A DNA stretch of 63,437 nucleotides, the filler included, from Licmophora abbreviata (lineage: Eukaryota): assembly GCA_900291995.1 (NCBI GenBank). It is 12 parts of 12 records of this genome, joined end to end, with 100 filler letters (N's around TTAATTAATTAA, not from the genome) between each part and the next. Parts side by side here need not be neighbours in the genome. Positions count along the whole stretch, not along the records: positions 42,588 to 44,207 come from OLMU01003650.1; positions 44,308 to 61,183 come from OLMU01003651.1; 10 more parts are not named here. One strand, written 5' to 3'. A program made the position numbers and the translations under genes. Every line of letters starts with the position of its first letter. Within the stretch, counting starts at the first letter, position 1. The notes below the pieces were generated by a model. The model saw only the letters and a program-made list of their open reading frames with translations, was not told the DNA's origin and did not search any database. This document shows, one piece after another, positions 41,497 to 48,367 of the stretch.

Positions 41497-42487
41497 ATGT
41501 TGTCTCTAACGAACCCTCAGTTGGCCCTGTGCCTCTTCATGGGACTATCCGCCGCCAACTCTGCGATGGCTTATCCGTACGAAACCTCTGAACCCAGCTT
41601 CAGCATGGCACCGAGTGCCGCTCCCGTCATGGCCACGGCCCCTCCGCAGCCGAGTGTTTGCACCCTCCCTGAGGTCACCATCGACTTTTCCGTCGACCCA
41701 GACACTGGATTGCCCCTTGTCAACGGCGACTTCGTGCGTGATCAGTGGCTGAAAAAGTACGGAATCATGGTGACGGCCGCCTCCACCGATGGAGGCTACA
41801 CGCCCGGTGGCATGGCTCGTATTTTTGATACTTCCTTGTTCAACAGCGAGGATCCCGATCTCGCAAGTCCCAACATGATGTGCCCGAATCCTGGACCTGG
41901 TGTCGGTTCTGGTGGTATCAAGGGCGCCAAGGGCGAGAACTGTAACCCCGATGGCGAGGGCAACGTTCTCATCATCCAGGAGTCCGACAAGCCGGAACCT
42001 GACGACAATGCTTACGGAGGAACGATGTCCTTCAACTTCATTGGCTGTCCAGCCGAAGCCCTTCTGTCCATCGGCCTGATCGACATTGACAACCCAGACT
42101 CTGACTACTTCTACATTGAAAAGGCTGGCGGGTCCATCACGCAAGACATCCATGGACTGGGTAACAATGCTGTTCAAGACGAGACCTTCGATAGCATCAT
42201 GGGTGTCGAGAGTGTGACTATCGTGGCCGCCAATTCTCTAGGAGTCCGCTACATTACTTACTGCCCTGGCCTCTGCGGATCTCCCACCAAGTCGCCTACC
42301 GGGCCAACGCCTGGGACCTCTGCCCCAAGCGCCAGTCCGGCACCGAGTGCAAGTCCGACACCAAGCGCAAGTCCGGCACCAAGCGCAAGTCCAGCCCCCA
42401 GCGGTACTGGTGCCACGCCCACGAAACCTCCGACCAACCCGCCGGCGCCGACCAACCCGCCCACTGATCCGCCTGCTCCAACCAAGC
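41497..42487 (+). CDS. Secreted paralogue of the upstream gene (one domain copy plus PSASPA/PTNPP stalk), 3' partial
   Basis: Signal peptide MLSLTNPQLALCLFMGLSAANSAMA, the same DPDL/GENCNP/PDDNAYGG domain, and Pro/Ser/Thr repeats. Confidence 0.85.
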
Positions 42488-42783
42488 NNNNNNNNNNNNN
42501 NNNNNNNNNNNNNNNNNNNNNNNNNNNNNNNTTAATTAATTAANNNNNNNNNNNNNNNNNNNNNNNNNNNNNNNNNNNNNNNNNNNNCTCGCGAGCTTTT
42601 TCTGGTTGCCCGTCGGCGATCCGGTGCGGGGCGTGTGGTGGGGCAGGAGGCTCACGTGTGTGTTGCGTTGACGCGAAGATGCTCTGGATCGTGAAGTGAG
42701 ACACAAGAACCAAGATTACACATTGGGCATTAGACTGCTTTTCGCACTTCAGTATCGTTTTTTCAAAGAGCATTGAGTAGAAG

Positions 42784-43978
42784 ATGACGACGCCAAGTGA
42801 AGTTGTGGAGGCGATTGAGAAGCTGAGCGCCTCCGACCAAGGTAAAACTGTCCATCGCAGCACGAGTCAATGGATCTACATGATCTGCCCTTGTGCGTAT
42901 CCCTACGGCCTCGTATGTCGACTCATTCACACCCATCTTCCTCTTCATCATAGAAACTGTCAAGGCCTACATTTCCAACATCGAAGCTGAGATACTTGAA
43001 CTCAAGGGTGGCGAAGACACACCGGAAGAAACAGAAGGAAGCGAAGATGATCCTGCTGATGACGATTGCTTCCCGCCTCTGTACTCTTCCGGCGATGACA
43101 TGGAGACGGCTGGACAGTTCAAGATGGAGGCGAGCGATCTCAAGGCGGATGGCAAATGGGAGGAAGCTCTCGAAAAGTACACGCAGGCAGTCTTGGCGGC
43201 GCCTCCCTCTGCCCTGCTTTACGCCAATCGTGCTCTGGCATTGCTCAAGCTCGAGCGCTACGACGCCGCCCAGCGGGACTGCACCGAGGCGCTCAAGATC
43301 AACCCAGATTCGGCAAAGGCGCTCCGCATTCGCGGAAAGGCCTATGAACATATGGAAATGTGGGAGGAGGCTCGTTCTGATTTGTCAGCCGCTCAGACGA
43401 TTGACTTTGATGAAGGCACTGTCCAGGACTTGAAGCTTGTTGTGGAGAAGATGAACGACATTGAAACGGGGAAGGCCAAGAAGAAGGTCGAAGAGGAAGA
43501 GAAATTGCGGAAGCGTGCGGAGGAAATCAAGAAAGCCCAGGAGGAGGCCAAACGGGAAGCATCCAGCAGCGGCATGCCTGGAATGCCCCCTGGTGGAATG
43601 CCGGGAATGCCGCCGGGAGGCAGTATGCCTGGCATGCCACCGGGAGCCGCAGGTTTGATGTCTTCTCTGATGTCGGATCCTGAACTTGCTGCAGCAATGC
43701 AAAATCCAAAGGTCACCGCGGCTCTACAGGAGCTAATGAGTGGACCTGGTGGTCCCATGGCTGCCATGTCGAATCCAGCTAGAATGCAAGAAATCATGAG
43801 TGATCCAGAAGTCGGCCCCGTCCTGCAGAAACTCATGGCAAAGGTTGGCGGTAGTATGGGAGCAGGAGGTGGAATGGGCATGGGAGGAATGGGAGGTGCC
43901 GGAATGGGAGATGATGCCGAAGAGATTCCGGATATGGGAGATGACAACGATTTCGAAGATCTGCCTGATTTAGACTAG
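42784..43978 (+). CDS. ST13: Hsc70-interacting protein (Hip/ST13)-like co-chaperone; intron 42842-42953
   Basis: TPR region (ALLYANRA...INPDSAKALRIRGKA), AQTIDFDE, charged coil, GGMP repeats and STI1/DP domain (MSDPELAAAMQNPKV). Confidence 0.9.
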
Positions 43979-44100
43979 TCGTAGACGAGTGGAAGGGTAA
44001 TTCTAGCAACAGAGTCCTCGCGAGACCAAAACGTCTCTTATGAAAACGGTAGACATTTAGTTGGAAGTGACAATAGTGAGGAGAAGAGTCGACCTTTTTC

Positions 44101-44778
44101 TCACTCTTTCTGCTGATCGGTGGTGGCGCTCACTGAAGTCTCAGCATTCCACGACCCGCCGAAGGGAGCAGTCGTTGGATCGCTAGATCCGGATTCCAGG
44201 GCCTTCTNNNNNNNNNNNNNNNNNNNNNNNNNNNNNNNNNNNNNNNNNNNNTTAATTAATTAANNNNNNNNNNNNNNNNNNNNNNNNNNNNNNNNNNNNN
44301 NNNNNNNGAAGGGAGCAGTCGTTGGATCGCTAGATCCGGATTCCAGGGCCTTCTTCTTCCATGCTGGCATATCTTCCTTCTCCTTTTTGTGATCGTGATC
44401 GTGCCCGTGGTGCTTGTGTTCATGGTCGTGACTCCCGTGATCATGGTGCTCTGGTTCGTCGTCATGGTGGCCGTGTTTGTGGTCATGGCCCTCCTCCTCC
44501 TCGTGCTTGCTATGATCGTGCCTATGTTCGTGACCACCATGAGGTTCCTCCTTGGATTCCTCACCATGATCAGGGCCGTGACCGTGGTCGCTTGTGCACT
44601 TTTCGTGACCATGGTAATGCGCGTGAGGGTCAGGTTCGTCCAACAGCGCCTTCACCCGTCCTTCGTACTCTTTGATTTCGTCGCGAAGACAAGCTACATA
44701 TCCGCGAATTACCACCTGCTGTGCTGGGGTCAAGCCAGCTAGGGTCTCTTTCACATTGTCTGGGATTGGATTCACCAT
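44101..44778 (-). CDS. Histidine-rich protein, about 176 aa if the gap is closed
   Basis: ATG 44778 and about 29 His in the central tract. The C-terminus PAWKKKALESGSSDPTTAPF-GGSWNAETSVSATTDQQKE* is recovered through the 47-nt overlap across the gap. Confidence 0.85.
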
Positions 44779-45093: not shown

Positions 45094-45768
45094 TTAAGTC
45101 AAACTATTGTTGGGTATTGATACGACAAGATCTCGGTCAAAAATGGCAGTTTGGCCAACACGGACTCTTTCGTCGTCGTAGACGTTCCACAGCGTAACGT
45201 TTGTCAGCTGAAAGGTCTCTCCGAACTTAGATTGTCGAGTCGCCCACGGGATGGTTCTTACCTCCTGCTGTACCACTGTTTTCATCATTTCCTCCCGATC
45301 TTGCCGCAGGAGCCCATCTGGAGCCGAGTATCGACTGGGGAGCGAGTAGACTTCTGATTCGGGCCACTGAAATTGCGAAAGAGCGCCTTTATTGAAATAA
45401 TTGTAGACTGGATCTGTCTGGTTTCCATGAGATAAGACTGCATAGCGTTGACTTTCGTGCACATCTGCAATCGAATCTACCCCCTCCATCCAGTCCAGTA
45501 GGCTGGTCCCTGTAAAGTCCTCGAGCGAATCTGACGACCATCGAATCCACTGATCTATATCATGTACTCGACCTGGTGGGACAGCGTAGACCTGGGAAGC
45601 TTTTGTTTGAGTGGCTTGTGACCGTTGTGATCGGTGCAGAAAGGCGCACCTCACTTGACCGCTGACTGCCGCAGCCGCCTGCCGCGCATGAAGCATGAAG
45701 ACGACGAGTGCGATCACCCCGCTAATCCTTCGAAGGACAAAGGGTAATTTATCAAGTTTTTGCTTCAT
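45094..45768 (-). CDS. Stand-alone MEKHLA (PAS-like) domain protein with N-terminal targeting sequence
   Basis: AVLSHG.Q.DPVYNYFN..AL..F.W......LPSRYSA...R and a TLWNV.D motif. Confidence 0.85.
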   Translation of the reverse strand: MKQKLDKLPFVLRRISGVIALVVFMLHARQAAAAVSGQVRCAFLHRSQRSQATQTKASQVYAVPPGRVHDIDQWIRWSSDSLEDFTGTSLLDWMEGVDSIADVHESQRYAVLSHGNQTDPVYNYFNKGALSQFQWPESEVYSLPSRYSAPDGLLRQDREEMMKTVVQQEVRTIPWATRQSKFGETFQLTNVTLWNVYDDERVRVGQTAIFDRDLVVSIPNNSLT

Positions 45769-46128
45769 TCTTGTCTGTCAATGGCTTCCTGTTCCGTTGC
45801 TTCTGTTCCACTCTCTTGCTGTCGCTGAGTTCCACCAACAGCGAGAAGCCAAAGATTCAAGATGAGAGTTGAGAGTCGAGTCTTCGTATTCAGTTTCGCT
45901 CGCCTCTCGTCTGGCGTGGACTTCTCCCGGGACTCAACAAGTGACTCGGGACTCACGAGGAAAGGCTCGCCACACGAGCTCTTCAACGAGCTCTATCAAA
46001 GCTCGCCGCAAATTCTGTTCGCCACCACAGCATGATGTGTCGCTGGCGGGTGGTATAGTAAATCACTTGTTCTTGGACCACTTCTAGCTATTCTACAGAC
46101 ATTGTAGGAGCCATGTATCTATAGATTG

Positions 46129-48367
46129 ATGGCGGATCTATCGAGAGACGTTGTGCTTCCAGGGAAGGAGTATCGGGTGAGAGAATGGACAGTTCGCTCC
46201 GGCTCGGCCGTGAAGTTCGGGGACACTGTGGCGCACGCTGTGCCACGAGACGCCTCAGGGGGTGACGATGTTTCATCAAGATCATCAACCAAACCTAGTT
46301 CTGTGAAACACAAGCGCCCTTCCATGAAGAATCGCAAGCCAAAGACGGATGAGGAATCCAAAGATCCGGGACCAGAGCCATCGGCTGACTCGAGCAATCG
46401 GCTACTGCCATCATCGTCAAGCATCGTATCCATTGTATCGCCATTGTCAGGGATACTGAAAATAGCCGAAACTATCGCCGAAGATGAGTTACGAATTGCG
46501 TATGTGGAACCCTGTTCACATCCAGCCATCATGGGAGGTCTTTGTGCTGTATGCGGAGAGTCAGTGGGTCCGGTTGACTCATCTCCAGGACAGAACAGGC
46601 CTTTGGCCACCCCGTTGGGTGATGCCCCCACTGCGAGCAACAAGAGCATGTCACAGGTAACAGTTTCAGGAGGCGTGACCATGACAGTCTCGGAAACAGA
46701 GGCACAACTGATATCATCGCAGTCGATGCAGAAACTGAAAGAGAATCGTAAATTGTCTCTCGTTCTTGATCTGGATCATACGCTGGTCCACGCAACGGCC
46801 GATCCTCGCGCGAAGACACAAGTGGGGCGGGAAGACGTGAGGACTTTGATTCTGCCGGCGGTAGAGAACCCAGGCCCCAACACACCGTGGATGCTGCATT
46901 ACATTAAACTTCGGCCTTACTTGAAGGATTTTTTTGAGCATGTCATACCTCTGTATGAAATCAGTGTCTATACAGCAGGCACCCGCTCATATGCAGAGCA
47001 AATCACCATGGTATTGAGTCGGTGCGTGGCGGGCACCAGCCTAGATGACGACGACATCCAACAACTCAGACATGAAGTAGAGCGGGTCAGACATGACCTG
47101 AAGAGAAAACGAGAGCTTGTCGCCAAGGGAGAAGAGGAAGCGTCCGGGCGAGTAGATGGCCCAACGAAAGAAACCGCGGATAGCCCTTCAGATGGGGATA
47201 CACAGATGAATGGAGATGACGAAAAGCCAAAGCTGATCAAGGACGATTGTGAAAACGAGACGCGAAAACGGAAACGCGTCAGCTTCGGGGAAGCTCCTCC
47301 AGAAATCAAAACCGACGAATTGACCGGTACCGATCTCGAAAGTCGCTTGAAAGATCTCGAAAAGAAATTGGAAGAGGCAGAGCGTCTAGACAAGAAGGCC
47401 CTTGCGTTCCGACAGAAGCTGTTTGGTAGTCGAATCATATCGCGGACTGATGTGGGTGACTTGGGCCGCGACGTCAAGAGTCTTAAAAGGGTCTTTCCAT
47501 GTGGCGGGACAATGGCCGTTATTCTAGACGACCGAGAGGACGTCTGGGCCAACGCCGAGAATAGCAGCGAAACGCGGAAGGGCGAGCCTCCTGACAATCT
47601 TTTACTAGTACGTCCCTATCATTGGAAGCCGTTTCAAGGGTTTGCCGACGTCAACAATGCCTCGGGCCTGGATTTGTCTGCGAACGAGCAAGGCGCGCCC
47701 GAGTCAAACGCCGGTGACGAAGAGTTCGATGATCAGCTCCAGTGGTGCGTGGATATTCTCCAACGGGTGCATGAACAATTCTATTCCGAGTCATCCGATG
47801 TTTCCGCTCCGTTACCAGTGGCACGGCTTATAGAGAAGATGCGGTGGGAGGTTTTGCAGGGCTGCAAGCTGGTTCTAAGCGGACTAGTCCCTCTTCACAA
47901 ACAGAAGCTCGATGCGAAGGCACCGCGTCCTCGGGCAATACGATATGCACAAGTACTAGGTGCACAGGTAATTGAAAACTGCGCCTACCAGCGGGCTATG
48001 AACTCGTATACTTAGGTGTGAGCATTGACCCTAGCTGCTAAATTCTCTTGTCCGTTTCACAACACAGGTCTCTGATGTAGTCGAAAGCAACACGACTCAC
48101 GTCGTTGCCACACGCGACGGTACAGATAAAGCAAATTGGGCACGTAAGATTCCCGGTTGCGCTGTCGTCAAGGCCTCTTGGCTCATGGAGTGCTATTGGC
48201 GAATCAAACGGTGCGATGTTCAGTCTCACTTATGGGAATCATCTCGGGTCTCGTCTCTTGTATCGCCAGTCAAACTGTCCGAAGCGCGAAGCGCCCACGA
48301 GGAAAGTAGCAGCGACAGTGACTCGGATGATCTGGCGGCAGAACTGGAAGCGGAAATGCTCGGGTGA
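46129..48367 (+). CDS. FCP1: RNA polymerase II CTD phosphatase FCP1-like (HAD domain plus BRCT); intron 47968-48067
   Basis: N-terminal CSHP...GLCAVCG, LVLDLDHTLVH (DxDxT), KLRP, YTAGTRSYA and ILDDREDVW. BRCT THVVA.RDGTDK...WLMEC. Confidence 0.92.

Follow-up and report, generated by a model that had tools for sequence, protein, structure and literature searches.

An N-terminal module shared by the Hsp70 co-chaperone Hip and a convergently encoded histidine-rich protein of diatoms

Histidine-rich tails or extensions are carried by Ni/Zn metallochaperones and folding helpers, among them SlyD, UreE, HypB, and plant UreG. In Hip/ST13 of animals and plants, a short N-terminal module and an acidic linker precede a TPR domain of three repeats, which is followed by a charged helix, by Gly/Met/Pro repeats, and, at the C-terminus, by a DP domain. 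The N-terminus of human Hip is described as a dimerization domain, Hip_N (bioRxiv 10.1101/2025.11.03.686288), and the His-rich regions of ZIP proteins are described as relevant to the transport of divalent metals (PMC9873189). A precedent for a lineage-specific small protein in a stable complex with Hip is trypanosomatid PEX38/LdSGT, an SGT-like protein, which links Hip to another pathway (bioRxiv 10.1101/2025.11.03.686288). Here, we analyze positions 42784–44778 of a 63,437-nt stretch of nuclear DNA from the diatom Licmophora abbreviata (assembly GCA_900291995.1; filler between the joined parts is included in the length), which is further called the window. In this region a gene for Hip on the + strand faces a gene for a His-rich protein (HRP) on the - strand. 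The two proteins share an N-terminal module, further called the N-module, and HRP as a whole corresponds to the N-terminal half of a longer form of Hip, which is found in other diatoms.

The comparison with the described systems shows both similarities and differences. The window Hip has the same order of elements as the animal and plant proteins, but the diatom N-module gives no match to Pfam Hip_N, and many diatom Hips have a His-rich, metal-type cassette inserted after the N-module. Similarly to SlyD, UreE, HypB, and plant UreG, the diatom proteins have a disordered His-rich stretch placed on folding or metal-delivery machinery, and diatom UreG and LarC share the cassette of HRP. On the other hand, the diatom His run follows a Hip-type N-module and is framed by a HAHYHGHEKC box and a PAWKKKAL...APFGGSWN motif, and its host is a TPR co-chaperone of Hsp70 rather than a peptidyl-prolyl isomerase or a GTPase. 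The His-rich cytosolic loops of the ZIP and CDF (ZnT) transporters are also related, because a diatom ZIP protein (P0296) and diatom CDF proteins (P0279, P0286, P0308, and P0316) contain the cassette motif; unlike them, HRP and Hip are soluble and have no transporter domain, and PxWKKKAL...APFGGSWN is not a known feature of these loops, as judged by a full-text search of the motif strings. In contrast to HRP, the trypanosomatid partner of Hip is not a paralogue of the Hip N-terminus, the trypanosome Hip is said to have no Hip_N, and no link to metals is described.

The initial annotation of this locus had claimed that Hip and the His-rich gene begin with the same module, aligned without gaps and with 10 identities in 35 residues, and this claim was confirmed by shuffling. 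The BLOSUM62 score of the gap-free alignment is 52, which was reached in none of 100,000 shuffles in the fixed register and in none of 20,000 shuffles in which any register within the first 50 residues was allowed, while 10 identities were reached in 15 of 100,000 fixed-register shuffles. The comparison of hidden Markov models of the two orthologue sets, which had been proposed as a check, was also significant, because hhalign aligned 34 standalone modules with 38 modules from Hips without the cassette (short Hips) over 34 columns with a probability of 98.2% and an E value of 3.8e-14. The corresponding values were 98.2% and 3.9e-14 for the standalone modules against seven modules from Hips containing the cassette (long Hips), and 98.8% and 4.1e-17 for the short-Hip against the long-Hip modules. 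In 100 shuffles of the columns of the Hip set, made with those 31 of its 38 rows that lack an insertion, the top probability was 10.7% and the top score was 14.5, as compared to the real score of 52.7, and the reversed alignment gave 0.5%. The mean identity between the standalone and the Hip module sets is 31%. Judging from these alignments, the similarity of the N-modules is real homology.

The Hip gene begins with an ATG at 42784, and its spliced product of 360 amino acids ends at a TAG stop. The splice that forms the N-module is supported by homology: uninterrupted diatom proteins, such as P0003, align without gaps over the predicted splice junction, and exon 1 ends at the same position of the module in the syntenic metagenome loci L001 and L072. 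From the single RNA run, X1 (share 0.10), one contig of 241 nt was obtained, at 42655–42895, which enters the intron unspliced and is uninformative on splicing or expression. Exon 2 encodes, in this order, the second half of the N-module, the acidic linker, an FPPLY motif, the TPR domain, the charged helix, GMP/GGMP-like repeats, the DP domain, and an acidic tail. The His-rich gene is convergent with Hip, with 122 nt between the stop codons. Its reading frame starts with an ATG at 44778 and enters an assembly gap at 44208–44307, which consists of Ns and a TTAATTAATTAA linker. The flanks of this gap are identical over 47 nt (44161–44207 and 44308–44354), and collapsing this overlap gives an HRP of 176 amino acids with the stop codon at 44101–44103, in which all 29 histidines are located within residues 50–135. 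The features of the locus are as follows.

42784–42841, + strand: Hip exon 1, with Met and the first half of the N-module; codon phase 1 at the exon end
42842–42953, + strand: Hip intron of 112 nt with GT..AG ends, within the N-module; the unspliced frame hits a stop (open reading frame 42781–42990)
42954–43978, + strand: Hip exon 2, from the second half of the N-module to the TAG stop
42793–43009, + strand: Hip N-module, residues 4–38, interrupted by the intron (shuffle test, alignment, hhalign)
43097–43501, + strand: Hip TPR domain, residues 48–182 of P0001 (residues 37–171 of rat 4j8d_A; TPR families)
43655–43840, + strand: Hip STI1/HOP DP domain, residues 234–295 of P0001 (PF17830, E 1.1e-11)
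43979–44100, no strand: spacer of 122 nt between the convergent stop codons
44101–44160, - strand: last 19 codons of HRP and TGA, with the second part of the APFGGSWN motif and a tail that fits the family consensus
44161–44307, no strand: assembly artifact, a 47-nt duplicate of 44308–44354 followed by the N/TTAATTAATTAA gap at 44208–44307 (identical flanks)
44308–44778, - strand: first 157 codons of HRP (P0002; open reading frame, 48 homologues, family alignment)
44659–44763, - strand: HRP N-module, residues 6–40 (shuffle test, hhalign, AlphaFold2 helices)
44578–44625, - strand: HRP HAHYHGHEKCTSDHGH box, residues 52–67, with invariant A53, H54, H56, G57, C61, and H65 (family alignment, motif pattern)
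44374–44631, - strand: HRP His-rich run, residues 50–135, with 29 His in 86 residues (composition; predicted disordered in the orthologue P0130)
44308–44367, - strand: first part of the HRP PAWKKKAL...DPxxAPF motif, residues 138–157, with the rest at 44122–44160 (motif pattern)

The identity of the + strand gene as Hip is indicated by its domains. The window Hip (P0001) matched the Pfam families TPR_1 (E 3e-12), TPR_2 (E 3.7e-13), and PF17830 STI1-HOP_DP (E 1.1e-11, 44.8 bits versus a cut-off of 29.1), and Gly/Met/Pro repeats precede the DP domain in the translation. Its TPR domain matched that of rat Hsc70-interacting protein (4j8d_A) with an E value of 5.9e-21 (residues 48–182 of the query and 37–171 of the chain), which was the best match to a single TPR domain, as SPAG1 and RPAP3 ranked higher solely as multi-TPR chains. 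At E ≤ 1e-5, exon 2 of Hip retrieved 411 proteins; among the best 120 of them, diatom homologues are named "suppressor of tumorigenicity protein 13" or "Hsc70-interacting protein" in their sources.

Several diatom Hips, 435–507 amino acids long, contain three extra elements between the N-module and the TPR domain, which are a HAHYHGHEKC..DHxH box, a His-rich run, and a [DE]xP[AE]WKKKAM...DPxAAPFGGSWNxExS motif. Examples of these long Hips are P0057, P0060, P0063 (Ditylum brightwellii), P0068, P0075 (Skeletonema menzelii), P0085, and P0118. P0217 is a further long form, and long Hips were also found in 26 of 77 metagenome loci. The same elements are present in identical order in the window HRP, which has an HxHxHGHxKC..DHxH box at 44625 on the - strand and, after the His run, a PxWKK[KR]A[LM]...DPxxAPFGGxW motif, which is split by the gap. 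Additionally, P0002 matched the long Hip P0068 in BLASTP with an E value of 1e-18 (residues 6–157 and 7–125, respectively). Because of the shared order of elements and this match, HRP is the counterpart of the N-terminal half of long Hip. The window Hip, on the other hand, is of the short form, in which the N-module is joined straight to the acidic linker without a cassette. It is unlikely that long Hips are chimeras of assemblies or gene models, because such forms are present both in transcript-derived records and in 26 independent loci. Within the long-Hip module the first half is closer to short Hip than to the standalone family (42.8% versus 34.3% identity), while the second half is closer to the standalone family (39.6% versus 35.0%), and the boundary between the two halves coincides with the intron in the module of Hip. 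The possibility that long Hip arose by exon shuffling between Hip exon 1 and HRP was considered and set aside, because the identities of the half-modules differ little and an ancestral long form would explain them just as well.

The query with the whole HRP found 48 proteins of 86–275 amino acids at E ≤ 0.01, which include those of Thalassiosira pseudonana and Cyclostephanos tholiformis, as well as complete open reading frames derived from transcripts. A word-indexed search with residues 1–50 of HRP alone found no homologue (four candidates, none of which scored), and HRP did not match any Pfam family. The alignment of 26 sequences contains 18 invariant columns, including A53, H54, H56, G57, C61, and H65 of the box, and P138, W140, K141, A144, D151, A155, P156, and F157 of the motif. 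Among 1.84 billion cluster representatives, a profile search recovered a small family, with 183 matches at E ≤ 1e-3, of which 116 also passed E ≤ 1e-10 and 11 passed E ≤ 1e-30. Several other diatom standalone genes seem to have an intron directly after the HYHGHE(K) box, while the window copy has no such break; the models P0159, P0161, P0162, and P0167–P0169 read into junk at this point, and the tblastn matches are split in loci L016, L024, L053, and L062. The C-termini also differ, as the window-related standalone proteins mostly end with ...DKMEE or ...DKMKE, those of the Thalassiosirales type with ...DATK, and the window HRP with ...QQKE. An acidic C-terminal end beside a TPR protein might bring to mind the EEVD-type ligands of TPR domains, which is offered here just as a thought.

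In a tree of 30 standalone proteins and the N-terminal halves of seven long Hips, the branch separating the two groups has a support of 100/97, and the standalone proteins of the Thalassiosirales type group together as a clade of their own (99/98) on the side of the other standalone proteins. This placement means that the split between standalone proteins and long Hips predates the divergence of Thalassiosirales from the relatives of the window species. The Hip and HRP genes are almost certainly paralogues. The derivation of the pair from a duplication, which had been initially proposed as a local one, is supported in a stronger form, because HRP matches the whole N-terminal half of long Hip; a local character of this event is suggested by the conserved adjacency of the two genes.

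The distribution of the cassette among Hips is patchy. On the tree of the Hip core, the long or short state, where it could be called, requires 7 changes; at least 3 of them are forced by well-supported (starred) branches in an IQ-TREE quick tree with 39 rows, and at least 5 in a FastTree tree with 114 rows. The window Hip groups with the short Hip P0003, and the next nearest protein by path length is the long Hip P0057. Some Hips resemble relics, as P0095 keeps the DPHVHYHGTEKCTGDHGH box without the His run or the motif, and P0062 and P0084 have degenerate acidic/Trp stretches at the position of the cassette. This pattern was read as repeated loss of the cassette from an ancestral long Hip, although gain is also possible. 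The arrangement resembles gene fission, or subfunctionalization, by duplication and complementary domain loss, in which HRP keeps the N-module and the cassette, short Hip keeps the N-module together with the TPR and DP domains, and the all-in-one form survives in other species. The direction of change is not proven here, because the trees are unrooted.

The His-rich run followed by the PxWKK[KR]AL...DPxxAPFGGSWN motif was also found in diatom proteins of other families. These are the CDF transporters P0279 (Cation_efflux, E 8.5e-32) and P0286 (with ZT_dimer), with the cluster mates P0308 and P0316; the ZIP transporter P0296 (E 8.4e-17); the UreG protein P0281, assigned through P0310 of its cluster, which passes the curated cut-off of TIGR00101 (E 7.3e-78); and the LarC protein P0302, assigned through the Proboscia alata protein P0311 of its cluster (TIGR00299, E 1.9e-53). 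In the cassette proteins of these four families a CxxC element, often G[ED]DCxxCxP, precedes the motif. The presence of the cassette in UreG, LarC, CDF, and ZIP proteins points to a putative role in Ni/Zn handling. Because all four families handle Ni- or Zn-type ions, the cassette could be considered a metal-binding module and the motif a shared docking element. HRP is conserved, and it is likely that it binds metal. The pair had been initially proposed to be a metal-chaperone/folding pair; this proposal gains support from the fused forms and from the cassette in UreG, LarC, CDF, and ZIP proteins, while the pairing itself would be a further assumption. A full-text search with four motif strings found no paper, literature on diatom His-rich proteins and on Hsp70-interacting protein gave nothing relevant, and a search of the zinc-transporter literature surfaced no diatom paper. 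Passages of the article on ZCRP-A/B contain no mention of histidine-rich, Hsp70, or TPR proteins (PMC9010474). Hence, neither a Hip with a metal-binding cassette nor the cassette with the motif was found to be described in the literature searched.

The linkage of HRP and Hip beyond the window was examined in one metagenome scan, in which 77 loci were classified by tblastn and loci at least 95% identical were collapsed into groups. Besides the 26 fused long Hips, these comprised 7 standalone genes convergent with Hip and 44 standalone matches without Hip. In the convergent loci, which form three groups (L001/L002, L024/L072, and L062/L064/L065), the genes are 409–594 nt apart, and in L001 and L072 the neighboring Hip is short and has an intron at the same place in the module. 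The sequence downstream of the standalone gene reaches at least 1.5 kb in 14 lineage groups, and in 11 of these no Hip adjoins the HRP gene. The linkage of HRP and Hip is recurrent, but not universal; the convergent arrangement seen in the window does recur in three other metagenomic lineage groups. For the standalone protein P0130 and the Hip P0026, which come from the same source, the longest contig listed has 69,364 bp in both cases, and the two may thus share one contig.

The fold of the N-module was predicted with AlphaFold2 using an alignment of 32 modules. In the HRP module a helix at residues 7–14 is followed by a turn and a helix at residues 18–44, with a mean predicted local distance difference test (pLDDT) score of 91.9. 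In Hip such a short helical hairpin stands at the very start of the chain, ahead of the acidic linker, which is the arrangement looked for in a Hip_N-like module. The model of the whole orthologue P0130 shows the same hairpin (pLDDT 85–96), a small β-hairpin at the box, and a short helix at PAWKKKAL, while the His-rich run is disordered, with pLDDT below 50 for residues 72–113. To assess pairing, residues 1–45 of P0002 were combined with residues 1–46 of P0003, the closest Hip orthologue, which was used as a stand-in because the module of the window Hip is split by the intron. This complex prediction, run without alignments, returned "weak support" with a score of 0.35, as compared to 0.02 for the best of three controls; the runs agreed in at least 94% of contacts and the partner pLDDT was at least 73. 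Of 78 solved complexes 51 reached the mark, as did 2 of 108 mismatched pairs; at scores of 0.60 or lower, however, the passes were limited to 5 of these 78 complexes, whereas every one of the 4 mismatches (of 180) that passed was in this range. The prediction cannot distinguish homo- from hetero-pairing.

We consider it fairly probable that Hip and HRP are old paralogues sharing a portable cassette, a putative metal-binding arm that has been fused to or split from Hip. HRP consists of a predicted helix–turn–helix module, the invariant HxHxHGHxKC..DHxH box, a run of His, Asp, Glu, and Lys that is predicted to be disordered, and the PAWKKKAL...DPxAAPFGGSWNxExS motif, and long Hip holds the same series in one chain, followed by the linker, TPR, GGMP, and DP segments. 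The cassette may bind Ni/Zn-type ions in the cytosol, and the conserved C-terminal motif may dock on a factor common to all cassette proteins. The N-module could be an oligomerization module, because it is located at the N-terminus, where animal Hip dimerizes, and HRP would then be at least a homodimer. Long Hip would represent a metal-binding arm tethered to an Hsp70 co-chaperone, while in the species with short Hip, including the one in the window, HRP would supply this arm as a separate protein.

Several observations weigh against this reading. Pfam Hip_N was not listed for P0001 or 42 diatom Hips (among 25 of 103 families), and the 32 isolated modules gave neither Hip_N nor any family matched by more than 4 of the modules (25 of 32 families listed), in tests that were run without a canonical Hip as a positive control. 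A profile search of the module against the PDB gave 26 matches at E ≤ 10 with no Hip chain among them, all at chance level, the best being a sigma factor with E 0.0054 and a per-domain E above 4. Structure searches with the module, a 45-residue hairpin that carries little signal for fold comparison, gave no match at E ≤ 0.001 in Foldseek, generic helical hairpins with Z up to 5.6 and no Hip entry in 50 rows in VIA-align, and no usable match in the ESM Atlas. As neither a family nor a fold was matched, the view of the module as a Hip dimerization domain is derived solely from its position and shape. The complex score of 0.35 is in a range in which most passes are wrong, and the second chain (P0003) comes from another organism. 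The tree of standalone proteins and long Hips is unrooted and includes low-complexity columns, the long and short states were called by simple patterns with 74 of 114 rows uncallable, and the E values of the cassette matches may be inflated by His-rich composition, with the motif confirmed by pattern and by eye. Finally, 16 of the 44 Hip-less loci, which form 11 groups, show no Hip although the sequence downstream of the standalone gene extends for at least 1.5 kb; some of these 16 may be transcript contigs or cassettes of other genes. Taken together, it is plausible, and in our view rather probable, that the N-module mediates oligomerization, while we regard its pairing of HRP with Hip with some doubt. 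The initial annotation had proposed that the module is a dimerization domain pairing the two proteins, and this proposal has gained weak support from the complex prediction without acquiring a sequence or fold link to Hip_N.

The same data can be viewed in the light of the model put forward initially, in which HRP heterodimerizes with the neighboring short Hip through the N-module and so rebuilds long Hip in trans, with one arm for metal and the other for Hsp70. Both modules are homologous and located at the extreme N-terminus, the fused long Hips show a joint operation of the two functions within a single molecule, the tight convergent linkage of the window recurs in three more lineage groups, and the complex prediction favored the pair over its controls (0.35 versus 0.02 at best, with P0003 as the stand-in). 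On the other hand, the standalone and the Hip modules have each kept their own flavor since the old split (100/97; mean identity 31%), as is often the case for paralogous homodimers, and the prediction is blind to the difference between homo- and hetero-pairing and used a stand-in from another organism. Moreover, the Thalassiosirales T. pseudonana and Cyclostephanos have standalone HRPs, while relatives such as Skeletonema have long Hips, so that HRP is not simply a replacement for a lost cassette. This model seems to us possible, although somewhat doubtful. A similar weighing applies to the view that HRP is an independent homodimeric buffer or metallochaperone of cytosolic Ni/Zn, serving the UreG/LarC/CDF/ZIP network, and that its adjacency to Hip is a relic of duplication. 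The tail-to-tail arrangement, 122–594 nt apart, has been kept in at least four lineages including the window, which speaks against this view, and the 7 changes of the cassette state on the Hip tree, at least 3 of them forced, suggest that Hip can dispense with the cassette when a separate copy is present, which in turn suggests an overlapping function. However, the cassette is common to Ni/Zn proteins, HRP is unlinked to Hip in 11 of the 14 lineage groups with enough flanking sequence, HRP and long Hips co-exist within the same diatom order, and the HRP-specific residues of the module are strongly conserved, so that this view has a considerable chance of being correct, albeit one we would place a little under even.

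It could also be argued that the similarity arose by chance or by convergence of amphipathic helices, and that the His-rich frame is decaying and functionless, given that the window pair has 10 identities in 35 residues and that neither module matches a known family. This explanation is extremely improbable in view of the shuffle controls and the profile–profile E value of 3.8e-14, the collinearity of the whole HRP with long Hips, and the 48 conserved, intact homologues with 18 invariant columns, which include complete transcript-derived reading frames. The broadest form of the proposal is that a cytosolic metal-trafficking network, not yet described, is marked by the portable cassette in UreG, LarC, CDF, ZIP, HRP, and Hip, that metal insertion is coupled to Hsp70-dependent folding, and that HRP and Hip are paired via the N-module in species with short Hip; we consider this full version unlikely. 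The favored reading remains that of old paralogues with a portable cassette.

Other features surround the pair. Upstream of Hip, a second assembly gap at 42489–42587, also consisting of Ns around the TTAATTAATTAA linker, truncates an open reading frame at 41497–42488 (+ strand), which has a hydrophobic N-terminus and C-terminal Pro/Ser/Ala-rich repeats, of the PSASPA type and then of the TNPP type, and which did not match any Pfam family. On the far side there are an open reading frame with a MEKHLA domain at 45097–45777 (- strand, E 7.8e-25) and a NIF/FCP1-like phosphatase at 46129–48012 (+ strand, E 2.7e-16), neither of which has an evident connection to the Hip and HRP pair.

Hip is a conserved co-chaperone of Hsp70, and a metal-binding arm built into it is previously undescribed in the literature searched. 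One lineage offers three natural states of this arrangement, which are the fused long Hip, the split HRP and short Hip, often as neighbors, and the relic forms. The conserved C-terminal motif is a ready bait for the protein that would read it. The cassette ties Hip to the urease and LarC maturation factors and to Zn/Ni transporters, and it thereby provides a testable route to the allocation of Ni and Zn in diatoms, which matters for urea use and for the Zn demand of the carbonic anhydrase type in the ocean. These observations also bear on whether there is a coupling of metal insertion to chaperone-assisted folding, and the pair hints that diatoms link metal handling to protein folding.

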